IMG/VR virus record: IMGVR_UViG_2690315922_000022
Location: 1 to 25,367 of that record
Reading direction: 5' to 3' (one strand)
DNA: 25,367 nt
Origin: a virus
Taxonomy: Duplodnaviria > Heunggongvirae > Uroviricota > Caudoviricetes
Every line of letters begins with the position of its first letter. Within the stretch, counting starts at the first letter, position 1. Positions 1-13,562 of the stretch are shown here, one piece after another. Below the pieces are notes generated by a model. It ran no database searches. It saw only the letters and a list, made by a program, of their open reading frames with translations, and was not told where the DNA came from. A program made the translations under genes and the position numbers.

Positions 1-1158
1 ATGCTCACCGTTAAACAGATTGAAGCGGCAAAGCCGAAAGAGAAACCATACCGACTTGTTGATGGTAATGGTCTGTACCTTTATGTCCCTGTATCCGGAA
101 AAAAGGTCTGGCAGCTTCGCTACAAGATTGACGGTAAAGAGAAAATCCTGACTGTCGGAAAATATCCGCTTATGACTTTGCAGGAGGCAAGGAATAAAGC
201 ATGGACTGCGAGGAAAGACATCTCGGTTGGCATAGATCCGGTAAAGGCGAAAAAGGCTTCGTCTAACAACAATTCTTTTAGTGCAATTTACAAGGAATGG
301 TACGAGCACAAGAAGCAAGTTTGGTCGGTAGGCTATGCAAATGAACTTGCAAAAATGTTTGATGACGACATTTTACCTATCATCGGCAGCCTTGAAATTC
401 AGGATATTGAGCCGATGCAACTTCTTGAAGTAATCCGCAGGTTTGAAGATCGCGGTGCAATGGAGCGAGCCAACAAAGCACGCAGAAGATGCGGCGAGGT
501 TTTCCGTTACGCTATTGTCACCGGAAGGGCTAAATATAACCCAGCACCTGACCTTGCAGACGCCATGAAAGGATACCGCAAGAAGAACTTCCCGTTTCTT
601 CCTGCAGACCAGATCCCGGCATTCAACAAAGCACTGGCAACATTTTCAGGAAGTATCGTATCGCTCATTGCGACCAAAGTTTTACGCTACACAGCCCTAA
701 GAACGAAAGAGCTTCGTTCCATGCTATGGAAGAACGTCGATTTTGAAAACAGGATTATCACCATTGACGCCAGTGTGATGAAGGGACGCAAAATTCATGT
801 GGTTCCTATGTCAGACCAGGTAGTTGAACTTCTCACTACGCTAATCTCAATCACCAAACCAGTATCAGAGTTTGTTTTTGCCGGGCGCAACGATAAGAAG
901 AAGCCAATCTGTGAGAACGCAGTGCTACTTGTGATCAAACAAATCGGATATGAGGGTCTGGAAAGCGGTCACGGATTCAGGCATGAATTCAGCACGATTA
1001 TGAACGAGCACGAATGGCCCGCTGATGCTATTGAAGTGCAACTGGCACATGCCAACGGCGGTTCTGTGCGTGGAATTTACAACCATGCTCAGTATCTCGA
1101 TAAGCGCAGAGAAATGATGCAGTGGTGGGCGGACTGGCTTGATGAAAAGGTGGAGTGA
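1..1158 (+). CDS. int: Phage integrase, P4-type tyrosine recombinase (IntS / Sf6-Int-like); N-terminal arm-binding domain plus C-terminal catalytic domain
   Basis: 385-aa ORF starting at window base 1 (MLTVKQIEAAKPKEKPYRL...); C-terminal GHGFRHEF and RGIYNHAQYLDKR motifs typical of tyrosine recombinases. I recognise it from memory as near-identical to E. coli CPS-53 IntS. A start upstream of the window cannot be excluded. Confidence 0.9.
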   Translation: MLTVKQIEAAKPKEKPYRLVDGNGLYLYVPVSGKKVWQLRYKIDGKEKILTVGKYPLMTLQEARNKAWTARKDISVGIDPVKAKKASSNNNSFSAIYKEWYEHKKQVWSVGYANELAKMFDDDILPIIGSLEIQDIEPMQLLEVIRRFEDRGAMERANKARRRCGEVFRYAIVTGRAKYNPAPDLADAMKGYRKKNFPFLPADQIPAFNKALATFSGSIVSLIATKVLRYTALRTKELRSMLWKNVDFENRIITIDASVMKGRKIHVVPMSDQVVELLTTLISITKPVSEFVFAGRNDKKKPICENAVLLVIKQIGYEGLESGHGFRHEFSTIMNEHEWPADAIEVQLAHANGGSVRGIYNHAQYLDKRREMMQWWADWLDEKVE

Positions 1159-1182
1159 TCCGCCTTAAAAACTATCGAATAG

Positions 1183-1230
1183 CACAAAGCCTTGCAATCC
1201 AGTGAAAAGCTTTGTGTGTATGAGTTTTTT
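1183..1230 (+). terminator. Putative int 3' stem-loop: 8-bp inverted repeat CACAAAGC...GCTTTGTG followed by a T6 run
   Basis: Perfect 8-bp inverted repeat at 1183-1190 / 1209-1216 with an 18-nt loop, then TTTTTT at 1225-1230. Loop length and spacing are non-canonical. Confidence 0.3.
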
Positions 1231-1311
1231 CTCATCAACTACCGCAAGTCATCGATCGATTGAGACTAGGATGATAGACTCCATGCCTTTAATTATTAGC
1301 TGATAGAAGAA

Positions 1312-1674
1312 ATGTTAAAGCTATTTGCAAAGTACACCTCGATTGGTGTGCTAAACACACTTATACACTGGGTGGTTTTTGGTGTCTGTATCTATGCAGC
1401 GCATACAAATCAGGCTCTGGCAAACTTCGCAGGTTTCGTTGTGGCAGTGAGCTTTAGCTTCTTCGCGAATGCAAAATTCACATTCAAAGCATCGGCTACA
1501 ACGATGCGCTACATGTTATATGTCACGTTCATGGGAGCGCTTAGCGCTGCTGTTGGATGGGCTGCTGATAGATGCGCACTTCCCCCAATCATTACTCTTA
1601 TAACCTCCTCCGCCATCAGCCTGGTGTGCGGTTTCGTCTATTCAAGGTTAATTGTCTTTAGGAGTGCGAAATGA
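1312..1674 (+). CDS. gtrA: GtrA, bactoprenol-linked glucose translocase (flippase), small 4-TM membrane protein
   Basis: 120-aa hydrophobic protein immediately downstream of int, overlapping the next gene by 4 nt (ATGA); size and sequence are typical of GtrA in serotype-converting phages. Confidence 0.9.
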
Positions 1675-2594
1675 AGATATCTCTTGTAGTTCCTGTCTTC
1701 AATGAAGAAGAGGCGATACCAATTTTTTATAAAACGGTGCGTGAATTCGAAGAGTTGAAGCCATATGAAGTAGAAATTGTTTTTATAAATGATGGTAGCA
1801 AAGACGCTACTGAGTCAATTATTAATGCTCTGGCTGTTTCAGATCCTCTAGTTATTCCTCTGTCATTTACTCGCAACTTTGGTAAAGAACCAGCATTGTT
1901 TGCAGGGTTAGACCATGCTACTGGAGATGCCGTGATTCCAATTGATGTTGACCTGCAAGACCCGATTGAGGTTATCCCTCATCTTATTGAAAACTGGCAG
2001 GCTGGCGCCGATATGGTGCTGGCAAAGCGTTCAGACCGCTCTACAGATGGGCGTCTGAAGCGCAAGACAGCAGAGTGGTTTTATAAGCTTCACAATAAAA
2101 TCAGCAATCCGAAGATCGAGGAAAATGTTGGCGATTTCCGGCTGATGTCCCGCGATGTAGTGGATAATATTAAGCTTATGCCAGAACGCAATCTTTTCAT
2201 GAAAGGCATTCTTAGTTGGGTTGGTGGGTCTACAGATGTAGTTGAGTATGTCCGTGCTGAGCGGATAGCCGGCAGCACGAAATTCAATGGATGGAAATTA
2301 TGGAACCTAGCACTTGAAGGTATAACAAGTTTCTCCACTTTCCCTCTGCGTATGTGGACTTATATTGGGCTATTCGTAGCTGGAATGGCTCTTTTATATG
2401 GCACATGGATGATTATCGATACCTTGGTGTTTGGGAATCCGGTTCGCGGTTACCCATCACTTATTGTATCCATTCTCTTCTTAGGCGGAATTCAGCTTAT
2501 AGGAATTGGCGTACTTGGTGAATATATAGGAAGAATTTACATAGAGTGCAAAGATAGACCTAGATTTATTATCAAGAGAATGAAAAATGAATAA
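1671..2594 (+). CDS. gtrB: GtrB, bactoprenol glucosyltransferase (GT2 family)
   Basis: 307 aa; N-terminal GT2 signature ([23 protein letters not shown]) and two C-terminal TM helices; coupled to gtrA and to the downstream gene by overlapping stop/start. Confidence 0.92.
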
Positions 2595-4017
2595 AACAAT
2601 TAAAATCAACTTCTACATACTATTTATTATTTTGTTTTTTATTATAACATGTAATATTTACTACTATGATGATGTATTTAGATCGTATTGGGGATATTAT
2701 GGTTGGTCTGAAGATGGAAGGCCTTTTGCAGATTTATTCTATAAATTATTTATTTTCTTTAGATCTGAAAGCATACCAGATATTTACCCACTACCACTAA
2801 TTTTAACGTCTGTGCTTCTTGTTATATCACTAACAAAGGCATTGCAAAATATACTATCAAAAGATGGGGTTATAGTTAATATAACTTTTGCAATATTTAT
2901 GCTTAATCCTTTTCTTTTGTCTAATATGCTATTTAGATATGATGGTGCATTTATGATTTTATCTATTGCACTTTCGGCTATTCCGTTCATTTTTACAAAA
3001 AGTAGAACATTCGCCATATCATCACTACTGTGCCTAACAATATCGCTTGGATTGTATCAGGCCTCAATAAATGTGTATATTGGACTTGCATCAGTAGTGG
3101 TTGCAATGGAAGCATTGAAAGGGGAAAAGTTTACATCTATAGCCAGCAGAGTGCTATTATCTGTTACATGCGTAGTCTCTTCATATGTTATATACTCAAA
3201 ATTAATACTTGAATCATTATCTTTAAATAATAACTTCTCGAAATATGCTCAAATAGTTGAATTAAATAAAGGAGGAGTCATCAATGTTTATGAGAATATA
3301 ATTAACGCAGTTAAAAAAATTGATGTTGCTCTTCATAGTGGTATTGGAACACCTCTTTATATATTTCTATCAATAATAGCCATATCATCTGTGTGTGTTG
3401 CCATTAAACGAAAACAATTTCAGTTACTATTTTTTATTGCTATATCTATTTTAGGTTGTTTCTTTTCTTCTTTTGGTGTGTCTGTCTTTGGGAAATCGCC
3501 AGTATTTGTGTCAAGGATATTTATCGGATTTGGTGTTTTTATAATGGCAGTTCCTTTGATTGGCTCAGCACTTCTTAATTGGAAACTTAATTACTTACTA
3601 TCATTATTCATTGCAATTCCTATGCTGTCCATCTTTTTTGCCACCATTAATGCCTCAAGAGAGGAATTTAAATTCCAAAACAATTTATCACTTCAAATGA
3701 TTAATGATATTAATCATAGCAAAGCTAAATATCTCGACTTTGTTGTTATTGATGGCTATGCGAAGAACTCCTCTGTTGCAAGCATAAATAAGAAAATATT
3801 TCCCGTAATATCTGATATATTGCCTCCTGTCTTTACAAATAGATATGATGGTGGGGTTTTTACATTGATGAGAAATGGACTAAAAGATGTTGTTAGTGCT
3901 GAGTCATCAGCTGCAGACAACGCGGTATCAATATCAGATGACGGAAATCTAATTTCTGACAATAATATATATAGCATTCATGCGACCAAAGATATTATTG
4001 TAATAAAATTAAAATAA
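2587..4017 (+). CDS. Serotype-specific O-antigen glucosyltransferase (GtrC-type polytopic membrane protein); exact specificity not identifiable
   Basis: 476-aa multi-TM protein as third gene of the gtr operon; very AT-rich compared with gtrAB, as is typical of horizontally acquired type-specific gtr genes. Confidence 0.8.
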
Positions 4018-4023
4018 CCCCTA

Positions 4024-4065
4024 GCCCCCCTCCCGCATCAACTCCAGTAATGGCGGGAGAGGGGC
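4024..4065. terminator. GC-rich hairpin between the convergent gtr operon and tailspike gene (probable bidirectional terminator)
   Basis: 13-bp stem GCCCCCCTCCCGC / GCGGGAGAGGGGC (12 of 13 paired) with a 16-nt loop; U-rich tract follows on the minus strand, A-rich on the plus strand. Confidence 0.45.
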
Positions 4066-4084
4066 TACAAAAAATCAAATATCA

Positions 4085-6148
4085 CTAAGAAAAAATCCAA
4101 TTACCATACATTCCAGTTATTTCACTATATGTGCCTTCTTTATTTTTTAATTTAATCCAAGCGCCGAATTCAGTGGTGGCTACTTGCGTTACTTCTGAAG
4201 AGTTACTTACAAACCTTATATTTGCTACACCTATTGCTCTACTTGGTGATGAGATTGTCATAGCTCTTATTATTTTTAACTCTCTGAAATCACCAGTGCT
4301 ACTTGCAATTATATCAATATCATTAGTGCTATGGTTAAATATAATGGTGTTATTTAACAGCTTTGTATTTTGAAAAGATGTTATTGTGGCAATCCCTCCA
4401 ATAAATCCTCTTATCTGGGCCGGGCCAGTATCTCCACTATCATAGGCTAATGATGTGGTTATATTATCTTCCTCCTTTCCTATATGTATATCAATAAAGT
4501 ACTCTTTTAAACTAATACCAGCCAAAACTAAAAATGTTGATATAGTAGATGTACATTTTTTAATAACCAGATTCTTAAAATTTCGAGATAACCCGCTGCT
4601 TATTGGATCAATAGTTCTAGGTAATAATCTGATTATTTTATCCCCACCAGCTATAGTAGTTTCATCAACAATTTCACCTATTTCCACAAAAAGGCGGTCA
4701 TCCCCCAGCATTTCAAAAACACAAAAGTCTAAAGGAGACGTTTTAAATACCACTCTATCAATTAAGATTTTCCCTATACCATTTCCCATAACTCTAGTAG
4801 CTGTCACCCCTCTGTTAGTCACATTCGTTAGTGTTGTATTCCCCGAGATGATTACATCAGCTACAAGACTGTCAGGGAAAATATTAAGTTCCAAACCAGT
4901 ATACGCACCATTGATGTATGGGTTTGAGATTTCACAATTAATCAGCCGAGGGACAGTGTGTCCAGGCACACTTTCGTCTGCCTCTGGTTCAATATCTATG
5001 CCAGATTTCGGCATAGCACCTGTAACACCTCCGTAGTCACCAATATTATAAATCTCAGGATTAACTATTATTATGTTTTCACCTGACGTTAGGCTTATAC
5101 CGTTACGCCTGCATTGTTTGATGATCGGTTTTTCTATATAGATATTTTCTGGGACCGTGCCATCGGTAGTCCCCCACTTCATGCCTATATATATTCCGTC
5201 GCCAAACATGTTGGTATACAGTCCACCAATAATACGAATATTAGAGGATTGAAGTATTGTAAGCCCCCACCCATGTTCTCCTTCGGATGTGTTTGTTAAC
5301 CGATCACCTTCCAGTACAGGATTATAAATATTTACATTTTTAACACCGTTTGCTATGTAAATGATATGGCTTTGTGGCCTGTTTTGATTTGCTAGTTTTA
5401 ATGCCCCATCCTTTTCAAACCTTATAGTGCTATTATCTACGCATCTTAACACAGATTTAAAAGCATCATTTCCAGGTGAAAAAGGGTCTTCATTCACAGC
5501 CATCAAGTTTTCAAATGATTTATCTATAATGAATTCTGCACCAATAGACGCTGCGGATTCATACGCTTTTTGTAGTGTTTGTGCGTCATTGCAAAAATCA
5601 GAAGCATAAATAGAGCTGGTTTTCTTTAATTCAAATATCCTACCGTTTCTGCTCCTGATAATTAATATTCCATCTGGGGTGAGCGTGGGGGTGGATGATT
5701 CATAAACATATCTACCATGAATCATTACATGATTAAATATATCTGGGACATCCTCTTGCTCTATATTAATAGCAACATATATAAGTTTATTACTTAACTC
5801 CCCCCTTAACTGATCAGGGTCATACTTCAGCACATTCTGGAAATAGAACTGCTGTACGCCATACGCATCATAAACAGCCATAGAATGGCCTTGCACGGTT
5901 ACGAACTTGGCAATCTGTCCGTTATATACAGGGTAACCAGCAGCGTTAATGATGATTGGTTGCGATACAGGAACGTGAGAGCCGTCTTCGTTCTCCACAT
6001 AAACCTGAATCTGGTTTTCAGGATTTACCGGGTCAGTATCAATTTTACCGATATAAATTTTGCCATTAGCTACGGCTTTAAAAGAACGCGCCATAGTGAA
6101 GAGTTGCGAAGGCATGCTAACTACAACATTGGCTGTAATGTCTGTCAT
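4085..6148 (-). CDS. Tailspike protein: P22/Sf6-type N-terminal head-binding domain plus divergent right-handed beta-helix receptor-binding domain (probable O-antigen depolymerase)
   Basis: 687 aa; the first ~110 aa ([34 protein letters not shown]...KYDPDQ) match the conserved tailspike N-terminal domain as I recall it; the remainder is AT-rich with beta-helix-like repeats ([22 protein letters not shown]); GGAG RBS 9 nt upstream. Confidence 0.85.
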
Positions 6149-6204
6149 TTAATTTGCTCCAGATACAAGGAATCGCCGCAGCATGGCTACGGTGAATTTT
6201 GGGC

Positions 6205-6230
6205 ATAAAAAAACCCAGCCGAAGCTGGGT
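6205..6230 (-). terminator. Intrinsic terminator downstream of ant
   Basis: On the minus strand: CCCAGC-TTCG-GCTGGG hairpin followed by a T7 run, about 20 nt after the ant stop codon. Confidence 0.55.
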
Positions 6231-6248
6231 CGTTGCGTTGGTTATCTG

Positions 6249-7127
6249 TCAGTAGTTATGTACTGAAGGAGGTAATTCTTTATTCTTAAGTCTCATCCAT
6301 GCGGAAAGATTCGTTGGTCCGTCTGGCTCATTAATATCAACATCTCGTGTGTGATTGATTAAAACGTCTCTCGCCATTCCGATAACATACGAGAACTCAT
6401 GACCGTAGTCGTAGCATCTGCCGGAATAGTTCGATTGAATTTGTTTTAGCGCCGGATACAGTTCGCGGAATAATGCCTGTGAGCGGTTAGCATAATCCCA
6501 TAACCATACAAGGCTGTTTGCTTCTTTTGCAGAAAGCTCGTCGGTTTTCTTCTCTTGTTTGCCAATGAACTCGCCTTCAAGCACTACCCTGTGGATGTAC
6601 TCTACGGCCAGCGGGATTTGTTCAATTGAAAGTTCATCAATACTGTCAATACCAAAACGCTGATGAACCATATTGTATGCATCGTCATAGCGAAGTCCTT
6701 TCTTTCCTACCAGCATGTTTACTGCATCGCGTAGCGGTGTTCTTTCCTCAACAGTGGTTTTCTTTCCTTTTACATACTCGCCATGTTTGCGAATTGAAGG
6801 CAGAACTTCTGCTGTTACCCATTTGCGGAATTTGTGCGGGACTGAACCTTTATTGACTGCATCGCGGCAGCGCAGAACCAATGTATACATACCTGATTCG
6901 CTCACAATGCTTAGATTCTGCTCACCACCAAGGGTGTAACTTAAAGTTACTCCCTTTTCATCGTCATCAAGTGCAGTAAGCGCCTTGCGTGAGTTAGTCA
7001 AAGCTAAAGCATCACAAACATCTTTAGCTACAAACCACGGCTCACCGCACTTGTTGATGACGCGGATTTCACTGTCGCCGAATTTGAAGATGGTGAAATC
7101 GTTTTGTGCCTTTGCTATACTTTTCAT
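6249..7127 (-). CDS. ant: Antirepressor Ant (Bro-N / KilA-type N-terminal domain plus ANT C-terminal domain)
   Basis: 292 aa (P22 Ant is about 300 aa); N-terminal [11 protein letters not shown]...[14 protein letters not shown] motif; located immediately downstream of the arc-like gene as in P22 immI. Confidence 0.85.
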
Positions 7128-7199
7128 GTCAATATTTCCTAATCCGATTTGTTGATACCGAAGCCCTGACTGTTACAGCAGTTGGGGCTTCAACTTTTT
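7128..7199 (+). ncRNA. sar: Candidate sar-like antisense RNA covering the ant RBS and arc-ant intergenic region
   Basis: Plus-strand hairpin GAAGCCC (7160-7166) / GGGCTTC (7185-7191) followed by T5 (7195-7199), antisense to the ant leader; no plus-strand gene is upstream. The 5' end is not defined and promoter elements are weak. Confidence 0.3.
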
Positions 7200-7330: not shown

Positions 7331-7440
7331 TTCTTTCCCAATTGCTACACCATGATAACTAAATACTACACCGTGTTTATTTAAAGTCAAAATTTTTTTG
7401 CCTACACTGTGTAGCAATGCTACAGCGTGCAGGAGGAAAA
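7331..7440. promoter_or_regulatory. Divergent Pant / Pmnt promoter-operator region with four CTACAC-type repeats
   Basis: Minus strand: -35 TTGACT (7390-7385), 16-nt spacer, -10 TAGTAT (7368-7363). Palindromes ACACCGTGT (7368-7376) and CTACACTGTGTAG (7402-7414) plus GCTACACC and GCTACAGC copies; AGGAGG RBS sits 4 nt before the mnt ATG. Confidence 0.5.
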
Positions 7441-7689
7441 ATGAAAGGTGCAAGAGATATCAGTCCCTTGGGAATTAGGATTCCAGACTATTTAAAGAAA
7501 CGCATTCAGCAGGAAGCGGATAAAAACGGCAGATCAATGAACTCAGAGATTGTGCTTATCCTTCAAAAACATGTTGATAATCTTGATGGCCCTCGCTCAC
7601 TTGAAGGATTCGCTAACCAAGAAGCTGATAAATTCAAAGAGGCGCTGCTTGAGACGCTGAAAACCATGTATGGCAAGGATGAAAAATGA
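7441..7689 (+). CDS. mnt: Mnt-like ribbon-helix-helix repressor with C-terminal coiled-coil
   Basis: 82 aa from the Met preceded by AGGAGG; N-terminus RDISPLGIRIPDYLKKRIQQEADKNGRSMNSEI is an RHH fold; length matches P22 Mnt (83 aa); divergent from arc-ant. Confidence 0.7.
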   Translation: MKGARDISPLGIRIPDYLKKRIQQEADKNGRSMNSEIVLILQKHVDNLDGPRSLEGFANQEADKFKEALLETLKTMYGKDEK

Positions 7690-7895
7690 ACAAAAAACAG
7701 TTTATTAAGTCAACAACGTCAAGCAAGGAAGAGCTAGAGAAGGAGCTAAACTCCCTGAAATATGCTCTGTGCCTGGTTTACTCAAGACTGCCAATGGAAG
7801 ATAAAAACGCCATTTACAATGAAATGATTAACAGCCTTGATTTTAACGATAGAGACCTAGCATCCCACCTCAACAGCTTCCGCGTCCCTGAGTAA
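7686..7895 (+). CDS. Hypothetical 69-aa protein translationally coupled to mnt
   Basis: ATGA stop/start overlap with mnt; AAGGA RBS; AT-rich; no family recognised. Confidence 0.45.
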   Translation: MNKKQFIKSTTSSKEELEKELNSLKYALCLVYSRLPMEDKNAIYNEMINSLDFNDRDLASHLNSFRVPE

Positions 7896-8055
7896 TTCTA
7901 TTGCGGATTTGCTTCTTACGGTGGTTTAAGCTGGAGAGCTTGGCTTCTGCTTCTGATATTTGCGCATCAAGATCTTTAAGCTCAAGATCTGAAAGTCGCT
8001 GGTCAAGCAGGGTTTGGTTCAACTCAATGTTGTTCAGGCGTTCTTCTATGGTCAT
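7870..8055 (-). CDS. Hypothetical 62-aa coiled-coil protein
   Basis: Internal Met with strong RBS (AAGGAGAAATC-ATG); heptad-like sequence (LNNIELNQTLLDQRLSDLELKDLDAQISEAEAKL); its 3' end overlaps the convergent 69-aa gene by 26 nt. Confidence 0.4.
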   Translation of the reverse strand: MTIEERLNNIELNQTLLDQRLSDLELKDLDAQISEAEAKLSSLNHRKKQIRNRITQGRGSC

Positions 8056-8196
8056 GATTTCTCCTTGTTGAGGTTGATGTGAAACGATTGATTGTATACG
8101 CACTCTTTTGTTAGCTAGTAGCTTTGCTTAATCGCAAGATAAAGTTTCTGATTAATCCCTAAAAATCAAAAAATAAAGTTAAAACAGGTACATGAT

Positions 8197-8400
8197 ATGG
8201 AATGGATCATAGGATTTGTTGTTCTTGTCTTCATAGCCAGTATGTTTAAACCAAGAAGTTGCGATATCTGTGGTGCTGGATTTAAGAAAAAGTACTTCAC
8301 ATGGACTATCGATGGAAAGAAACAGCATCTTTGTCCGTACTGCAACAGTAAAATGGAGAGACGCAACAGCGATAGGCGCTTTAAGGATCGATTTGGTTAA
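8197..8400 (+). CDS. Hypothetical small membrane protein with zinc-ribbon-like C-terminus
   Basis: 67 aa: N-terminal TM helix (WIIGFVVLVFIASMF) followed by CDICG...CPYC, then a basic tail; terminator follows immediately. Confidence 0.5.
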   Translation: MEWIIGFVVLVFIASMFKPRSCDICGAGFKKKYFTWTIDGKKQHLCPYCNSKMERRNSDRRFKDRFG

Positions 8401-8413
8401 CCATTTTATCTCC

Positions 8414-8449
8414 AACAAAAAACCCACCTGACGGTGGGTTTCATTTCTT
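8414..8449. terminator. Bidirectional intrinsic terminator
   Basis: AACCCACC-TGAC-GGTGGGTT hairpin flanked by an A-run upstream and a T-rich tract downstream; lies between the convergent 8197-8400 (+) and 8448-8867 (-) genes. Confidence 0.55.
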
Positions 8450-8867
8450 AATCTTGCTTCGTGGAAGGTATAAGAGATGCATTTGCCTCTTTTGGCTTCA
8501 ATGTATACATCCCACCATTAAATGGATCAACAGCAAGCCAACCAATTAACCCACCAAACACAAGGTTTCCACCAATATACCAACCATTAGCATTGGCTTT
8601 GATTGGCAGGGTAACTGATTCGTACCCATCCTTTTCCATAGTGATCTGGTAGCTCTTTTTGCCAAAATAACTACCATCTGACTTGGCAAGAGTTACTCCT
8701 TGTGGAGTCTTGCCTTGCGCAACAATCACGCCTGATTCATCTTTTACCTTAAAGCTCGCACCGGAAGGGTTGCTGTTCACTTGCACAAGTTGCGTTTCAT
8801 CACCAACAATAGTTGCGCACCCAGATAACATCATAGCGCCAGCAACGACGCCAATAATCCTCTTCAT
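8448..8867 (-). CDS. Outer-membrane lipoprotein with PEGA-like beta-domain and glycine-rich hydrophobic C-terminal motif
   Basis: Signal peptide with lipobox (MKRIIGVVAGAMMLSGC, Ala at +2); mature region VNSNPSGASFKV...GKTP...EKDGYESVT fits the PEGA pattern; C-terminal GGNLVFGGLIGWLAVDPFNGGMY. An alternative start 12 nt upstream (MEIDMKR) is possible. Confidence 0.6.
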   Translation of the reverse strand: MKRIIGVVAGAMMLSGCATIVGDETQLVQVNSNPSGASFKVKDESGVIVAQGKTPQGVTLAKSDGSYFGKKSYQITMEKDGYESVTLPIKANANGWYIGGNLVFGGLIGWLAVDPFNGGMYTLKPKEANASLIPSTKQD

Positions 8868-8988
8868 ATCAATTTCCATATTTAAAAAACCGGAAACATC
8901 CTAATGACAAACCATTCAAATGTGAAGTAGGCAAAAGATGTTTACTTTTTTCATGATATCCTGTGAAAAACTAAGGAGAGTTAACCAT

Positions 8989-9474
8989 ATGAAAAAATCA
9001 CTGTTAATTATCCCGCTTCTGCTGGTTGGATGCGCAAAAGTAAGTGACTATCAAGCAAGTTGCGAACAACGCTATCACAAGCTTAGCGATATGGCTAATT
9101 GCCTTGATGCCAGTGTGAAGAACGACTCACGCATGGCATCAGCACCAACACCTAAGTTGTATGTCCTTGCTGCAAAGATGCTCGGGCAAGGTGTCGATGA
9201 AGGCAAGATAAGTGACGCACAGGCAAGGCTTGAGCTTCAGAATCTTTATGTTCAATTACAAAGCCAAGAACAAGCCCAACAAATAGCACAAAGCCAAGCA
9301 TTCCAGCAGGCTTTATTGAATTATCAGGCTGTAAACACAATGCAAGCGATCGAGCAAAAAGCGAGACAGCCTGTTATAACTCAACCCTATCCAACACGCG
9401 TTGACACTTACACAAACTGCAATTCAGGGTTTGGAAATACAGTCACATGCAACAGTAGCAGTAACATAAGATAA
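8989..9474 (+). CDS. Lipoprotein with Gln-rich coiled-coil region, function unknown
   Basis: Start at the internal Met preceded by AAGGAGAG RBS; lipobox signal MKKSLLIIPLLLVGC (Ala at +2); several Cys and a Q-rich helical segment; divergently transcribed from the neighbouring lipoprotein. Confidence 0.6.
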   Translation: MKKSLLIIPLLLVGCAKVSDYQASCEQRYHKLSDMANCLDASVKNDSRMASAPTPKLYVLAAKMLGQGVDEGKISDAQARLELQNLYVQLQSQEQAQQIAQSQAFQQALLNYQAVNTMQAIEQKARQPVITQPYPTRVDTYTNCNSGFGNTVTCNSSSNIR

Positions 9475-9564
9475 CAATCAGCAAAGGTATCGCCTATGCA
9501 GAGTGGTACGATAAACCTCGCGTTCTACATATTTGGTTTTTGCACGTTCCTGGTATTTGCGAAG

Positions 9565-11562
9565 CTATTCTGACAACGCATCAGACTTGGCACCCTGAGT
9601 AATGGCGTTAATGGCCTTTTGCGCCTGCTGCATAGCTTTCTCAAACGCTGTTGATCCGCGTGGGGTATTTGCCATTCGGAGCATTGCATTTCTGAATGGC
9701 TCGCTCTCATAGGCGCGAGTAAGAAGTCCGTAGCTTACCGCTGCGCCAGTTGTCGCCGGGTTCATTGCCGTCCCATACCCGATAATGAACGGGATGGTTT
9801 GCTGCCCTGTTGGTGTTGTTACTGCTGCTTTTGCAGCCTGCTGCGTGGATTGCAGGTAGTTTTTCAATCCTTTCAGATAAGCGGCTTCCTGACCTTTAAA
9901 TGTGATGCCAGTCTGGTTTTGCAGGATGTTAAGCTGCCGAAGGAACTGGTCAGGGGATCCGCCAGATTTCTCCATCGCCTTTCCAATGATGCCATTGCGC
10001 ATTTGCGCCCTGCCAACACGACCAACTGAGTTATACAGCGTCTTAATTTCCGATTTGTTCTTGCTGAATAGCATGTTGTTGACAACTTCCGGCGTCAGGT
10101 CGCCTTTCATGAGAACATTCTTCAGCCTGGTATTCTTTAGTTTCGCCGCTTCGTCAGCGTAGACGGCATTGGCCTGCTGATATTTACGGAGAGTATCGTT
10201 GCCAAGATTCTGACCAATGGCACCATTGATATCGTCTGTCATTGCCTTGTAAACGCGCTGAATGGCAGCATCGGAACGGTTTGGTAACACTGGTCGTTCC
10301 CCCTTCACGTCCATTCTGAACTGGCTGCGCAGATCGCTTAATTGCTTCAAATCCAGATTTACCGGACCATCAGGACTAGCATTGCGAATAAGCTCATCAC
10401 GATAGGATTGAAGTTTTGAAATCGTCTCGTTATCAGCGACCTTACCAAGCTTCTGCAGGTTAGATATCTCAGTATCAATCTGCTGAATTGCTCGCACAGG
10501 CTGAATGTTTACTCCAGCCATAGCATTCTGAACCTGCTCCAGTCGATTACCGGCAGCACGACGAATTCCTGATGTTTTCGCTTTAAGGCTGTCAATAACA
10601 ACTGCCGGATCGTACTCGCCGAATTTATCAGCAAATCTCTGCACCAACTGGCTTCTCGCTTCCTGTTGCGTTGCTCTCATTCCGCTTGTGCCAGCCAGAG
10701 GGATATTTTCTGCTGTAGTCTGCGCCATTTTTCCGACGCGGGAAGTTGGTTGTAACAGGTCTGTGGTGTGCAGAGGAACTCCTTCACGCTCTGCAAATCT
10801 GATAGCCTGTTGCGCTTCTGGTGCGATAGCACCACGAACGCCACGATAAGCAGCACCTAATCCACGTCCGGCAGCGTTAATAGCACCGCCAGCCAGCACA
10901 CCAACGCCTAAATCGGTGGCGAGTGCTTCCGCATCATCTTTCGCACTGTTTGCAGCAAGTGATCCAACTGCGTTTTCTGCGAGAAGGCGAGTTGCCCCCT
11001 GAGCAATTCGACCAGCAAGTGTTGGTGCCTGTGTTGCCGCTCTCTCAACGCCAGCAGGAGTGAGGTAAGGCAATGCTTCAGCAAACACCCTGCCCTCTGT
11101 CGTTTGTGGAGTCAGCGCGCCTTGCTGAAGGCCAAAGTCCTGCTCTAATCCCTGCGTTGTTACTCGTGGCGCTGGTTGATATGTACCATCGCCAATGCCG
11201 AGTTTACCGCCAGCCCATGCAGCCGCACTTGTTACAGCATCGGCAACTGATGCAGGTATGTTTGCCACGTTCACGCCAGCCTGCACCAGTCCGCGACCAG
11301 TCTCTTTTACTGCTTCGCCAAGATCAGACATAAATCCACTTTGCTGTGGTTGTTGCTGTGCTACTGGTTGCTGTGTCTCCACTTGCTGCACAGATGGCAA
11401 TGGATAGGCAGCATAGAAAGCTTGCTTAGCCTGCTCTGCATTTTCTCCGGCTTGCGGGGCCACGACTTCATTGAAGTATTGCTCCTGAGCCTGCGCTTTT
11501 TGTTCTGGTGCTAACGCCTGATACTGTGGAGAGGCGATAACATCTTTCCATGCTTTAGCCAT
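9565..11562 (-). CDS. Ejection (E) protein, P22 gp16-like
   Basis: 665 aa, Ala/Gln/Gly-rich; position and composition match P22 gene 16; start overlaps the gp20 stop by 1 nt (TAATG). Confidence 0.8.
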   Translation of the reverse strand: MAKAWKDVIASPQYQALAPEQKAQAQEQYFNEVVAPQAGENAEQAKQAFYAAYPLPSVQQVETQQPVAQQQPQQSGFMSDLGEAVKETGRGLVQAGVNVANIPASVADAVTSAAAWAGGKLGIGDGTYQPAPRVTTQGLEQDFGLQQGALTPQTTEGRVFAEALPYLTPAGVERAATQAPTLAGRIAQGATRLLAENAVGSLAANSAKDDAEALATDLGVGVLAGGAINAAGRGLGAAYRGVRGAIAPEAQQAIRFAEREGVPLHTTDLLQPTSRVGKMAQTTAENIPLAGTSGMRATQQEARSQLVQRFADKFGEYDPAVVIDSLKAKTSGIRRAAGNRLEQVQNAMAGVNIQPVRAIQQIDTEISNLQKLGKVADNETISKLQSYRDELIRNASPDGPVNLDLKQLSDLRSQFRMDVKGERPVLPNRSDAAIQRVYKAMTDDINGAIGQNLGNDTLRKYQQANAVYADEAAKLKNTRLKNVLMKGDLTPEVVNNMLFSKNKSEIKTLYNSVGRVGRAQMRNGIIGKAMEKSGGSPDQFLRQLNILQNQTGITFKGQEAAYLKGLKNYLQSTQQAAKAAVTTPTGQQTIPFIIGYGTAMNPATTGAAVSYGLLTRAYESEPFRNAMLRMANTPRGSTAFEKAMQQAQKAINAITQGAKSDALSE

Positions 11563-12857
11563 TAATCACCCCATAGTGAAGAAAAGTTACTGCCAGTAGT
11601 AGATTGTTGCCCTGGCATATTCTGCACCGGCTCCTGATAATCAAACTGTTTTTTAACAGTGCTCAACTTGCTTTCAAGCTGATTTCTAATCTTTCCGATA
11701 GAGTCACGAAAAGCCTTTTCACTCATTTTGGGGCTTAGGGCACCAACCGCATCGGATAATTTTTTACCCTCAGCATCTGAAAGAGCGCCCATACCCTTCA
11801 GGGACTGCACCATAGGAAGGAATGTTTGAGCTTTAAAGGTGTCGAGCCTTGCTTCAAAGTTAGCCGCATCAGAGCCAGGAACTGTCGGAAACGCTGAGCG
11901 AATTCCTACTGCTTTTGAAAGGCCGGGGCTTTGCTCTATCTCGTTGAGAGAATCAAGCGCGGTGCTGAACGTATCAACTGCACCCTGAGCGGCGGCCTGC
12001 CTGTCAGCGCGGGCTATGTCAGCCTTTTGCCGAACATCTGCCTGTTTCTGTTTTAGCTCTTCAAGCTTTAACTGATTGCTTTCTCTGGCTATCTGTCTGT
12101 CCAGAGCCTTTTCTTGTAATTCTGCTCTTTGTATTTCGCGGGAAAGAGCAGCATTCTGTGCGCTGATGTTCTGTCCACGTATCTGGATGTCCTGACCACG
12201 CGCTGTTAGTGCTTCTCCAGCCTGATTGCTGCGGATTGTCTCTGCCAGCCTACCTCGGTCAATCTCACGACCAGCCATCTTGTCCTGAACATTGAAGTAG
12301 TCAATCGGACCGAGAGCAGCCATCCCAAGGTGATCAACAAACTCACCAAATCCTGAAGGATTCTGCTGATACATCTGAGCAACGTTATTAGGGTCAACAC
12401 CGACGCTAGTCAGTTCCTTGGCGTTGTTTTGCAGCCATGATTGCATTGCTTCTGGAGACGATGCCGCAAGACGAGCGCCAGCCGCTAAGGTGCCGATAGA
12501 ATTGCGCTGGTCTTCATCAATGAATCCCATGCCTTTACGAACGGATTCAATCTGGTCCGGATATTGAGTAGCCAACTGACGCAAAGCACCGCGATCACCA
12601 GACGCATAAGCATTAGCGTATGCCTGCTGAAATTCTTTCTGCCGCTGAGCCTGCTTTTCCTGCTGAAACACCCCCGCAATACCTGAAAGGCCTTGCAAAG
12701 CAGTCAGCCCAACATTGTTAGCGCCGGAACGCTCAATATCATTGTTCTGCCTGATAAGCTGAAGCGTATTGCCGATGTCATTTACGCTAGGAGCGTTTGA
12801 GTTGACGCCACCGATACCAGCCAACAATCCGCCATTTGATCCTTGCCAAGTAGCCAT
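11562..12857 (-). CDS. Ejection (E) protein, P22 gp20-like
   Basis: 431 aa; N-terminus MATWQGSNGGLLAGIGG... typical of gp20-type injection proteins; conserved order 7-20-16. Confidence 0.8.
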   Translation of the reverse strand: MATWQGSNGGLLAGIGGVNSNAPSVNDIGNTLQLIRQNNDIERSGANNVGLTALQGLSGIAGVFQQEKQAQRQKEFQQAYANAYASGDRGALRQLATQYPDQIESVRKGMGFIDEDQRNSIGTLAAGARLAASSPEAMQSWLQNNAKELTSVGVDPNNVAQMYQQNPSGFGEFVDHLGMAALGPIDYFNVQDKMAGREIDRGRLAETIRSNQAGEALTARGQDIQIRGQNISAQNAALSREIQRAELQEKALDRQIARESNQLKLEELKQKQADVRQKADIARADRQAAAQGAVDTFSTALDSLNEIEQSPGLSKAVGIRSAFPTVPGSDAANFEARLDTFKAQTFLPMVQSLKGMGALSDAEGKKLSDAVGALSPKMSEKAFRDSIGKIRNQLESKLSTVKKQFDYQEPVQNMPGQQSTTGSNFSSLWGD

Positions 12858-12866
12858 GATGACCCC

Positions 12867-13562
12867 TTAAAACAACGAGCCAAGCAGGCCAAGCCCGCCA
12901 CCAATTGCGGCGCCTAATCCAGTACCAAGTCCGGGGACAATAGAGCCAAGAGCGGCCCCAGTCATAGCTCCTGAAGCTCCTCCGCTAATTGCTGTCTGAA
13001 GACCTGATGGCTTATTGGCATTAGCAGCGGCGAGAGCTGCGCTTTGCTGTGCAATGCTGCTCATGTTGTTGGCGTATGTCTGCCCGGCGTTCGCCTGACC
13101 TTGCAACGCACCAAGGCCAATGTTTGCCAGATTGTTGTAGTTGCTCATCTGGTTTGATAACCACGACTGACCGAGAGTCGGCGCAATCGTAGCCAGTTGA
13201 TTGCTTGTGGCTGTCGATCCAAGTCCACCCGTTGCCTCCGCTGCAGCAAGACTCTGGTAACGCGCCTGACCTGCAAGGTCTTTATACTGCTGAGAGTTGT
13301 AATACTGATTAAGTGCCTGCCCCTGTCCTTCTAAACTGGAAAGATTCTGAAGCTGGTTAACATACTGCTCCGCAAGCGGCGTGAACGGAGCAAGGTTTTT
13401 CATGATCGTCTGCCACTGCTGATTTTGCAGGTCTGCGGCATACTTCTGAGCTTCTGCTGCATACTTTGCGCTTTTATCAGAGCTGCCACCTTTCCCGCCT
13501 TTTTCAGGGCAATAAGGTTCCTCGCCGCGCAGTTTTCTGCCCAGCTTAAATGCATATAACAT
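12867..13562 (-). CDS. Ejection (E) protein, P22 gp7-like
   Basis: 231 aa (P22 gp7 is 229 aa); N-terminus MLYAFKLGRKLRGEEP...EKGGKGGSS and glycine-rich C-terminus GAAIGGGLGLLGSLF match gp7 as I recall it. Confidence 0.85.
   Translation of the reverse strand: MLYAFKLGRKLRGEEPYCPEKGGKGGSSDKSAKYAAEAQKYAADLQNQQWQTIMKNLAPFTPLAEQYVNQLQNLSSLEGQGQALNQYYNSQQYKDLAGQARYQSLAAAEATGGLGSTATSNQLATIAPTLGQSWLSNQMSNYNNLANIGLGALQGQANAGQTYANNMSSIAQQSAALAAANANKPSGLQTAISGGASGAMTGAALGSIVPGLGTGLGAAIGGGLGLLGSLF

Follow-up and report, generated by a model that had tools for sequence, protein, structure and literature searches.

Accessory genes between mnt and gene 16 of a P22-like prophage, with a candidate exclusion lipoprotein at the sieA position

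Genes and signals of the slot

The window analyzed here is a 25,367-nucleotide stretch of tailed phage DNA (Caudoviricetes; IMG/VR record IMGVR_UViG_2690315922_000022, positions 1 to 25,367). Inspection of its sequence and open reading frames finds five small genes, A to E, within 7686-9474 of a P22-like prophage (Table 1). A sequence-only reading had listed five genes there; all are present and under selection, with small corrections to the coordinates and a length of 61 rather than 62 aa for B. Comparison with P22 agrees with its placement of the genes in the P22 sieA/immI slot, between gene 16 and mnt. The Mnt protein matches Pfam Arc at 32.6 bits (cut-off 20.4), its gene is preceded by an AGGAGG Shine-Dalgarno sequence, and arc, ant, and the sar RNA at 7129-7195 (Rfam, 69 bits) complete the immI set. 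At the other border, the records matching the gene 16 homologue label it as a DNA transfer or P22-gp16 family protein. The region has a GC content of 0.411 and is AT-rich relative to the structural genes (0.50-0.51; ejection genes, 0.509), as had been noticed, but it is not distinct in composition from immI/ant (0.425), the tailspike gene (0.375), or the gtr genes (0.365).

Table 1. Coordinates of the accessory genes, their signals and the bordering genes in the window
Feature	Position	Strand	Description
mnt	7441..7689	+	82 aa; Arc/Mnt ribbon-helix-helix maintenance repressor; context; first gene of the operon holding A
Gene A	7686..7895	+	69 aa; predicted soluble helical protein; translationally coupled to mnt
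Gene B	7870..8055	-	61-aa coiled coil; convergent with A; late-operon orientation
B-C divergent intergenic region	8056..8196	.	AT-rich; between the starts of B and C; mosaic junction at ~8065
Gene C	8197..8400	+	67 aa; N-terminal hydrophobic helix, then CxxC...CxxC
Intrinsic terminator	8420..8441	.	bidirectional; between C and D; also a mosaic junction
Gene D	8448..8867	-	139-aa lipoprotein; epsilon34 gp15
Promoter-like element for D	8898..8926	-	TTCACA, 17-nt spacer, TAGGAT; consensus scan; inferred
Gene E	8989..9474	+	161-aa lipoprotein; convergent with gene 16
Gene 16 homologue	9565..11562	-	ejection/DNA transfer protein; context; right border of the slot

Gene A is coupled to mnt as had been claimed: its start codon and the stop codon of mnt overlap in the sequence ATGA, with an AAGGA Shine-Dalgarno sequence upstream. 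The 3' end of B overlaps A by 26 nt, and B has an AAGGAG Shine-Dalgarno sequence. Both match PHROG families over their full length, A phrog_16466 (E 4e-50) and B phrog_7586 (E 3.5e-44); the other matches of B are weak ones of the coiled-coil type (XhlA, SMC-like), all below their cut-offs. In phages (Kapi1, Emek) A is always found alongside B. The B protein is 100% identical in Emek, and elsewhere the differences in its gene are synonymous only; dN/dS for A is 0.09-0.18 relative to its orthologues. A shows no similarity to P22 orf59a, which occupies the same position, and a toxin-antitoxin pairing of A with B finds no family support.

Gene C is predicted to encode a single-pass membrane protein with a very basic zinc ribbon on the cytoplasmic side, and would work at the cytoplasmic face of the inner membrane. 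Its homologues, in 17 clusters, are equal in length and 66-96% identical with conserved Cys residues; among 18 sequences C22 never varies and C25, C46, and C49 are each conserved in at least 90%, making two CxxC knuckles. These features agree with the description of C as a miniprotein with a transmembrane segment and a putative zinc ribbon; the match to Pfam Zn_ribbon_8 reaches only 16.9 bits, below its cut-off of 34.4. Substitutions relative to Yersinia homologues fall 11/5/43 and 15/10/41 on the three codon positions. These homologues lie in myovirus-type prophages near arc/mnt/ant modules, in one locus directly 3' of an mnt-like gene. RefSeq usually leaves C unannotated or puts it on the wrong strand. 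The antisense ORF that PGAP calls over C is ruled out by the codon-position bias and by its disruption in one homologous locus. No convincing promoter was found by consensus scan in the B-C intergenic region; A and C would be co-expressed with Mnt from Pmnt in the lysogen. The terminator between C and D, annotated as such in epsilon34, has a 9-bp GC-rich stem with a T-run on the + strand and, on the - strand, TTTTTTGTTGG.

The full-length PHROG matches of A, B, D, and E have E values of 1e-44 to 1e-110, and all of these families are of unknown function. With dN/dS of 0.04-0.18 relative to orthologues over the tested genes, the five ORFs are, by comparative sequence measures, real genes under purifying selection. 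The earlier statement that none belongs to a family of known function agrees with searches of Pfam, NCBIfam, PADLOC, PDB (sequence and fold), and BFVD, which returned no characterized relative for any of the five products. PADLOC-DB v2 gave zero matches for A, C, D, and E and only coiled-coil noise for B (PbeC/JetC, 12-16 bits). No similarity of sequence or fold to SieA, Cor, Llp, Ltp, or defense models was seen among the five products, and literature searches found no functional study of A, B, C, D, or E.

Lipoproteins D and E and their expression from the prophage

D and E had been described as two divergently transcribed envelope lipoproteins, and the details agree: D has the lipobox LSGC followed by AT, and E has LVGC followed by AK. 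In E. coli, the Lol sorting rule sends a lipoprotein with a residue other than Asp at +2, such as Ala, to the outer membrane. Both D and E have Ala at +2 and are therefore predicted to reside in the outer membrane, facing the periplasm; as predicted products they are credible envelope proteins. [quoted passage not shown] No homology to Cor or Llp was found in the mature part, the matches being non-significant and confined to the signal peptide (NCBIfam Cor, E 0.1, residues 1-30; phrog_1119, residues 1-20; PDB 8a60 (Llp), E 2.1, residues 1-31). By analogy, the mechanism of Cor, Llp, and Lpp, binding to the periplasmic face of a receptor, would be a plausible model for D or E. The primary receptor of P22-like phages is the O-antigen, so any target of D or E would be a secondary factor.

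D is predicted to fold as a PEGA/transthyretin-like beta-sandwich, with an almost invariant, glycine-rich hydrophobic segment at residues 95-120, and its dN/dS relative to orthologues falls in a range of 0.04-0.07 that it shares with E. The family is widespread in Enterobacterales and Pasteurellaceae. Homologues occur between the tail chaperone T and tape-measure genes of HK97-like E. coli prophages; in Proteus they precede the tape-measure gene, in Pseudescherichia they lie between I and J, and in Actinobacillus they adjoin ant. The chaperone/tape-measure slot is defined by gp15 of HK97, whose exclusion function is proven (Cumby et al. 2012; PMC3594210). Both gp15 and D are small envelope proteins with non-phage bacterial relatives, YebO in the case of gp15 and chromosomal genes of Enterobacter in that of D. 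However, gp15, a YebO-family protein, is small and resides in the inner membrane, whereas D is a predicted beta-sandwich lipoprotein; no homology between the two was detected, and tblastn of D against phages gave no HK97 match. The Enterobacter homologues, 77-80% identical to D, lie next to ABC transporter and aldehyde dehydrogenase genes with no phage genes nearby, and a role in host physiology therefore fits D as well as exclusion does. D would be a promiscuous envelope moron, repeatedly captured by phages from a bacterial lipoprotein family, and its role may be either exclusion, as for gp15 in the slot that D also uses, or envelope fitness. A spanin-like lysis pair of D and E was considered and rejected: the genes are distant from the lysis genes, are expressed in the lysogen, and lack the i-spanin/o-spanin architecture.

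Orthologues of D and E, 97.5-98% identical, are present in the Gally prophage of E. coli LF82 as LF82_139 (D) and LF82_138 (E), and their expression can be read from published RNA-seq data (S1 and S4 tables of PMC9928086, as log2(fpkm+5)). LF82_139 stands at 9.8-10.5 in the culture samples B1/B6 and at 11.0 in macrophages at 1 h, and LF82_138 at 7.9-8.2 and 10.3, respectively, while LF82_137 (gene 16) stays at 3.6-4.1 in all samples. The D and E orthologues are thus ~20- to 130-fold above a silent gene 16, and their transcription is independent of late transcription. It peaks 1 h after uptake, and at 6 h in macrophages it is 6- to 14-fold that in stationary LB. The Gally authors reported no gene above their 5-fold moron threshold in stationary LB, and there D (3.3-fold over background) and E (4.5-fold) do fall short of it, which speaks against counting them as morons; the published conclusion that Gally has no morons hinges on that threshold and on the growth conditions. 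At the positions of the promoter-like element of D, Gally has TTCACG and TAAGAT, again with a 17-nt spacer, the spacer sequence having diverged; upstream of E, the consensus scan found no promoter-like site. The sequence between D and E in the window is poorly conserved in Gally, so Gally expression carries over to the window by inference. With that proviso, D and E would be morons in the sense of having their own promoter/terminator and being transcribed from a repressed prophage.

Gene E and the position of SieA

E is preceded by an AAGGAG Shine-Dalgarno sequence and matches phrog_6067 over its full length; a longer, 178-aa ORF from 8938 is not a likely gene. Its dN/dS is 0.06-0.07. The only hydrophobic segment is the signal peptide, and the model of the remainder has a soluble helical domain at the N-terminus, where one Cys pair is conserved, then a Gln-rich helix, and at the C-terminus a beta-hairpin that carries the second Cys pair. 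There are 89 close homologues and 231 distant cluster representatives; none of ten distant members scanned has a Pfam match. The close relatives are found only in P22-like prophages, with gene 16 as neighbor in nearly every locus examined, the exception being one rearranged E. coli prophage. The stop codons of E and gene 16 are 90 bp apart in the window and 50-97 bp apart in 60 of 60 loci with a detectable gene 16 type. In Morganella prophages E is the sole gene between tailspike and gene 16, the same E-only arrangement is seen in Klebsiella aerogenes loci that reach the tailspike, and in Serratia E lies directly 3' of mnt.

This is the position of SieA. P22 sieA lies 22 bp after gene 16 and the type-B SieA of HS1 21 bp after it; like P22 sieA, E is directly after gene 16, convergent with it and on the mnt side. 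SieA is optional in P22-like phages, 22 of 66 of which carry it (Leavitt et al. 2024, PMC10883804), and so is E, whose orthologues are prophage-expressed. Neither type A nor type B SieA is present in the window (tblastn with P22 and HS1 SieA) or in any locus that carries E; no locus examined here has both E and SieA. The conserved SieA motif FxRYPxEAxxFNK has no regular-expression match in the six frames of the window. The proteins themselves differ: E gives no BLASTP alignment with P22 SieA and has no likeness of fold to it. SieA crosses the inner membrane several times, whereas E lacks transmembrane helices and is a lipoprotein whose signal peptide is cleavable and whose cysteines are of the periplasmic disulfide type. 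SieA has a demonstrated exclusion phenotype; for E such an activity would be a prediction. Occupying the slot of a known phage-exclusion gene makes E a good candidate exclusion gene; sharing the slot is not proof of sharing the function, since other kinds of gene are also hosted there.

E may then be a prophage-expressed functional stand-in for SieA, a periplasmic lipoprotein that would hinder superinfecting P22-like phages after adsorption. Two routes can be envisaged: i) interference with the trans-envelope channel of the ejection proteins gp7/gp20/gp16, the conduit being capped or misdirected; or ii) masking of an outer-membrane protein needed by the superinfecting phages, for instance by the conserved, disulfide-bonded C-terminal beta-hairpin plugging a porin used as secondary receptor. 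Extended to the family, E would be a new kind of superinfection exclusion by a periplasmic lipoprotein, replacing SieA in many P22-like prophages, which may include those of Escherichia, Salmonella, Serratia, Klebsiella, Morganella, Yersinia, and Proteus, and blocking DNA delivery from the outer-membrane/periplasmic side. We put this forward tentatively, as a possibility and not as the expected outcome. Besides the dissimilarity to SieA, the rearranged E. coli prophage in which E is away from gene 16 tells against E as a stand-in for SieA.

A different explanation casts the lipoproteins, perhaps together with C, as factors of lysogenic conversion or host fitness that act on the envelope (stress, serum, macrophage survival) instead of against phages. 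D and E would then resemble lambda Bor and Lom, likewise prophage-expressed outer-membrane proteins or lipoproteins with bacterial homologues, whose expression changes under host-like conditions. Neither resembles D or E in sequence, and a role of D or E in serum resistance or adhesion is conjectural. The wide distribution of D, its Enterobacter chromosomal homologues, the breadth of the lipoprotein family to which E belongs, and the rise of the LF82 orthologues in macrophages all point this way. However, expression in the bacteria-only samples B1/B6 is also high, and the macrophage contrast may therefore reflect growth phase and not be macrophage-specific. An in vivo CRISPRi screen of LF82 in the gut highlights other Gally genes for their effect on gut fitness, and the parts of that report available to us do not mention the D and E orthologues. 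The fixed place of E near gene 16 is hard to reconcile with a generic host benefit, and the one distant E-family member with readable context adjoins a phage terminase gene. We regard this explanation as somewhat unlikely, though a live one.

Much less probable is a function in the phage's own lytic cycle, by late masking of receptors or entry factors or by modulation of late-operon read-through into the tailspike gene. T5 Llp offers a model of the former: it masks the receptor late in infection, which spares progeny from being lost to lysing cells and debris. B and D run with the late operon, whose transcription must cross the region to reach arc, ant, and tailspike. Late antitermination would override the terminator after D, so that D should also rise in lytic growth. 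The moron that contains ant is moreover thought to influence tailspike expression (PMC2629481). Nevertheless, the late transcript is antisense to A, C, and E, transcription of D and E proceeds while gene 16 is silent, and many fully functional P22-like phages, P22, Sf6, and HK620 among them, lack the genes.

Assortment of the cargo

The region between genes 16 and 9 of P22-like phages has been described as the "ant moron", immI plus variable cargo in rapid flux, with ten types among sixteen genomes (Villafane et al. 2008, PMC2629481). The present region is that moron, and the view that its cargo was undescribed has to be given up: turnover was reported in 2008, D is epsilon34 gene 15, and D and E occur in sequenced phages. 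C and E are not discussed in that study, and the A+B+C+D+E combination is not among its types. Comparison of equivalent P22-like loci, which the sequence-only reading had proposed, showed that the contents of the slot do vary and that the junctions fall at gene boundaries, here at ~7675, 8065, 8415, 8927-8982, and 9474-9520. Matches to Kapi1 and Emek stop at query 666-667 (window 8065-8066), and matches of the D/E type start at query 1016 (window 8415). This patchy presence among close relatives, with junctions between genes, is also characteristic of morons as defined by Juhala and Hendrix.

Neither the 5,426 complete E. coli genomes nor the 50,697 phage records searched include one that covers at least 80% of 7400-9600. 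Megablast matches span A+B, B-C-D, D+E, D alone, or E alone, never all five, and partial arrangements are also seen in annotated genomes. Among the 5,426 E. coli genomes E is found in 186, D in 124, A+B in 74-130, and C in 32, an up to six-fold difference in prevalence between genes. The 80 E-carrying IMG/VR loci, which hold nearly identical E alleles and are not independent samples, comprise ~41 of the type mnt-E-gene16, 12 with D-E, ~13 with orf59a-E, and 1-3 with A or B; none has C. The idea that the five genes form a single co-functioning exclusion or envelope-modifying cassette, suggested by their contiguity and tight packing, the two divergent pairs around a shared terminator, and the predicted membrane or envelope location of three of the five products, is already largely refuted by these counts, by the failure to find the five together in any searched genome or phage, and by the occurrence of each gene alone in other phage types, and it is very improbable.

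As judged from these comparisons, 7686-9474 is the variable part of a P22-like ant moron and is made up of at least four independently acquired accessory units, not of one system. The five-gene combination looks like a recombinant, recent in appearance, of an mnt-A-B-C-D type and an E-gene16 type. The cargo, consisting of C, A with B, D, and E, would best be read as prophage-expressed envelope morons, for D and E by way of their Gally orthologues. To this reading as a whole, independent units expressed from the prophage with E as a substitute for SieA, we assign roughly an even chance.

The findings amount to testable candidates, not a new class of system; what is new to the searched collections is the five-gene combination itself. 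Automatic annotation routinely misses or mis-strands gene C. D ties the ant moron of podoviruses to the gp15 slot of the siphovirus HK97, a single envelope gene that unrelated phage types and bacterial chromosomes have both put to use. Both D and E are small and easily cloned and assayed. To our knowledge, SieA is the only known mechanism that blocks DNA injection by the short-tailed P22-like phages. Two thirds of these phages lack SieA, and E, carried by ~3% of the complete E. coli genomes and also found in several further genera, is a concrete candidate to fill that gap. If the proposal for E is true, the wider E family, with ~230 cluster representatives, would be a large unrecognized class of phage-borne entry blockers.

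The prophage and its ant moron slot

The window is a P22-like (Lederbergvirus-type) prophage (see the table). With the sar RNA at full length and its terminator hairpin present, the immunity I circuit looks complete and functional. The gtrABC-like O-antigen cluster at the left is assigned from ORF sizes, position and the P22 map only; if the assignment is true, the cluster would equip the prophage with a separate exclusion function that acts by modifying the surface. In P22, the gene after gene 16 is sieA, which is convergent with it and has a promoter of its own; then come a terminator, orf59a and mnt. By this order, the five small genes at 7686-9474, lettered A to E, occupy the slot for which Villafane et al. 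(2008) coined the name "ant moron" (PMC2629481). The slot is the sole insertion-tolerant place in the morphogenetic cluster and is in rapid flux, ten types having been found in sixteen genomes (PMC2629481).

Features of the window
Feature	Position	Strand	Remarks
Long ORF	1-1158		left end of window
Three gtr-like ORFs	1312-4017	+	O-antigen modification look
Tailspike gene	4085-6148	-	
ant	6249-7127	-	
sar antisense RNA, full length	7129-7195	+	between ant and arc; Rfam RF00262, 69.4 bits
sar terminator hairpin	7160-7191		
arc			between sar and mnt
mnt	7441-7689	+	
A	7686-7895	+	69 aa; ATG overlaps mnt stop (ATGA)
B	7870-8055	-	61 aa, coiled coil; AAGGAG ribosome-binding site
C	8197-8400	+	67 aa; starts MEWIIGFVVLVFIASMF, then very basic tail with CxxC...CxxC
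Bidirectional terminator	8420-8441		
D	8448-8867	-	139 aa; lipobox LSGC, Ala at +2
D promoter-like element	8926-8898		TTCACA, 17 nt, TAGGAT; position kept in Gally
E	8989-9474	+	161 aa; lipobox LVGC, Ala at +2; strong ribosome-binding site
Ejection genes 16, 20, 7	9565-13562	-	remaining virion genes beyond

The sequence-only reading located all five genes correctly, including the coupling of A to mnt and the divergent lipoproteins D and E; its convergent coiled coil B, whose 3' end shares 26 nt with A, is 61 rather than 62 aa long. Two divergent pairs, B/C and D/E, flank the terminator; B and D are co-oriented with the late operon, and A, C and E with mnt and P22 sieA. The AT-richness noted at first (GC 0.411) is distinct from the structural genes (0.50-0.51) but not from immI/ant (0.425), the tailspike gene (0.375) or the gtr-like region, the lowest in the window (0.365).

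All five genes are real. Against orthologues, dN/dS is 0.04-0.07 for D and E and 0.09-0.18 for A, and B shows synonymous changes only. C is ~70% identical in nucleotides to its Yersinia homologues, with substitutions distributed 11/5/43 and 15/10/41 by codon position. RefSeq/PGAP leaves four of the six listed E. coli C matches without any feature, and an alternative PGAP call is a 90-aa ORF on the opposite strand (WP_063278160.1; window 8179-8427, minus strand; 5344-5616 in L002, a P22-like prophage of E. coli 203740). The antisense ORF was rejected: it is broken in one homologous locus, and codon-position bias favours the plus strand. This bias and the conservation in Yersinia identify the 67-aa C as the real gene.

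A mosaic of independently mobile morons

The region is built of morons that move independently of one another. Coverage of 7400-9600 stays below 80% in every one of 50,697 phage records and 5,426 complete E. coli genomes, and the ends of matches coincide with gene boundaries (~7675, 8065, the terminator at 8415, the D/E intergenic region at 8927-8982, and 9474-9520). Partial sets occur elsewhere: A and B together in Kapi1 and Emek; mnt-D-E-gene 16 in Gally, a prophage of E. coli LF82, and in vB_EcoP-720R6; D without the others in epsilon34 (gene 15); and E without the others in VSe13. Prevalences in the 5,426 genomes are unequal (E 186, D 124, A+B 74-130, C 32). The single cassette first proposed is thus not upheld, and a single five-gene system is among the less likely readings. 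The window looks recombinant, an A-B-C-D type having been joined to an E type within the D/E spacer, which also explains why this spacer differs from that of Gally.

A and B match only PHROG families of unknown function. A stands where P22 has orf59a, to which it is unrelated. The homologues of C fall into 17 clusters and all have the same length; in Yersinia, C lies within tail/baseplate clusters of myovirus-type prophages near arc/mnt/ant modules, and at one locus an mnt-like gene immediately precedes it. Since the nearest consensus terminator downstream of mnt-A comes after C, the Pmnt operon plausibly ends with C, and C and A would be expressed together with Mnt in the lysogen. The zinc-ribbon tail of C (net +9) is predicted to be cytoplasmic by the positive-inside rule.

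Several related loci were observed in passing. In L002 the immI region (1174-6254) is tandemly duplicated and rearranged. It contains two pairs of arc and mnt, a single intact ant and a Bro-N gene that is truncated; E is situated between the copies, and the second copy is followed by A, B, C and orf59a. This prophage is a live example of recombination shuffling the slot. Homologues of orf59a (76-98% identity) are found there (5696-5875, plus strand) and in the tail-region moron cluster of Proteus siphovirus prophages (L004/L006, 4309-4491, minus strand), ~1.5 kb from a D homologue; such scatter marks orf59a as another wandering small moron. Yersinia myovirus-type prophages (L028/L029) carry a YafO-family toxin gene (4551-4988, minus strand) and a 186-aa partner between the arc/mnt module and C; the accessory island around immI-like modules also gathers toxin-antitoxin genes. 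The window Mnt is 100% identical to an Arc-family gene in the tail region of an E. coli HK97-like siphovirus prophage (L008, 11345-11593), adjoining genes for a ClpP-like protease and a Bro-N/P22_AR_C antirepressor; immI-type modules therefore pass between podovirus and siphovirus prophages.

The lipoproteins D and E

E has 89 close homologues, all in Enterobacterales. In their alignment the lipobox is present, one Cys pair in the N-terminal domain is invariant, and a C-terminal hairpin has another, conserved pair; such a pattern fits a periplasmic, disulfide-bonded protein. In the AlphaFold2 model, residues 19-97 form a helical domain (pLDDT ~79-88), after which come a Gln-rich helix of low confidence and a beta-hairpin at the end. 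Among 1.84 billion cluster representatives, a profile search found 231 relatives, mostly lipoproteins of ~125-135 aa that share the N-terminal domain; most end in TxC...G...C(N/T)(S/T)(Y/R). Ten distant relatives scanned gave no Pfam match above threshold, and one distant relative adjoins a small-terminase gene.

The genomic context of E is nearly invariant. In 80 E-carrying IMG/VR loci (E alleles all at least 97% identical), the gene 16 type was detectable in 60, and in all 60 the stop codons of E and gene 16 are 50-97 bp apart. In Serratia, E directly follows mnt and abuts gene 16; in Morganella no other gene separates the tailspike gene from gene 16, and the same holds for Klebsiella aerogenes at the single locus extending as far as the tailspike. 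The sole exception found to this adjacency is the rearranged L002. SieA of type A (P22) or type B (HS1, ECHS_RS01600) sits 21-22 bp past gene 16 in the same orientation as E. Both types are absent from the window and from every E-carrying locus examined; E keeps to the SieA slot, and E and SieA are mutually exclusive in these loci. Unlike SieA, E is not a multi-pass membrane protein, and no sequence similarity between them was found.

The homologues of D number 714, in Enterobacterales and Pasteurellaceae. A PEGA/transthyretin-like beta-sandwich is modeled confidently at residues 25-93; the almost invariant glycine-rich hydrophobic stretch that follows (GWYIGGNLVFGGLIGWLAVDPFNGGMY) is the best-conserved portion of the family but of low confidence in the model. 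In HK97-like E. coli prophages the homologue is flanked by the genes for tail chaperone T and the tape measure; in Proteus prophages it precedes the tape-measure gene, in Pseudescherichia it separates tail genes I and J, and in a prophage fragment of Actinobacillus it is found between Q and ant. In Enterobacter its surroundings are ordinary chromosome, free of phage genes. This range of contexts points to a bacterial envelope lipoprotein family captured by many phage types. The slot in the HK97-like prophages is the one that gene 15 has in HK97; this gene was the first to be named a moron, and its role in exclusion is proven (PMC3594210). The same HK97-like prophages (L007, L009, L010) also have a porin gene (Porin_1/Porin_4, 357-387 aa) between tail genes M and L at ~10261-11424, giving these tail clusters two separate envelope morons.

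Prophage expression and possible functions

The Gally orthologues of D and E (97.5-98% protein identity) are expressed at roughly 20 to 130 times the level of gene 16.

Expression in LF82 as log2(fpkm+5), from supplementary S1 and S4 tables of Misson et al. 2023 (PMC9928086)
Gene	Bacteria-only B1/B6	Stationary LB	Macrophage 1 h	Macrophage 6 h
LF82_139 (D)	9.8-10.5	4.8-6.2	11.0	9.4-9.5
LF82_138 (E)	7.9-8.2	6.0-6.3	10.3	8.5-8.7
LF82_137 (gene 16)	3.6-3.7	3.6-3.9	4.0	4.1

With gene 16 low, D and E are transcribed on their own from the prophage; a role in the lytic cycle is less likely. The E promoter could not be located. Gally was reported to lack morons at a 5-fold cut-off (PMC9928086). In stationary LB, LF82_139 and LF82_138 stand 3.3-fold and 4.5-fold over the prophage median, just below it; in growing cultures and macrophages they reach tens to more than 100 times the neighbouring late genes. 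The absence of morons in Gally thus depends on threshold and growth condition. D and E are predicted envelope lipoproteins, prophage-expressed as judged by these orthologues.

The exclusion idea, now centred on E, is a reasonable hypothesis: E may be a functional substitute for SieA, hindering DNA delivery by P22-like phages from the periplasmic side, and D would serve exclusion or envelope fitness. Phage-excluding lipoproteins in structural clusters have precedents in Cor, Llp and the mEpimmI Lpp proteins, none of which has homology to D or E. The chief alternative, a role of the lipoproteins in host fitness, is favoured by the chromosomal homologues of D and by the condition-dependent expression of both genes.

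The initial observation was therefore largely right and its "cassette" framing wrong. Nor is the cargo undescribed, the slot being a known hypervariable locus (PMC2629481) and the kinds of element known. The window carries a new combination of these in that locus; what it offers is a pair of good candidates for experiment, not a new system class.
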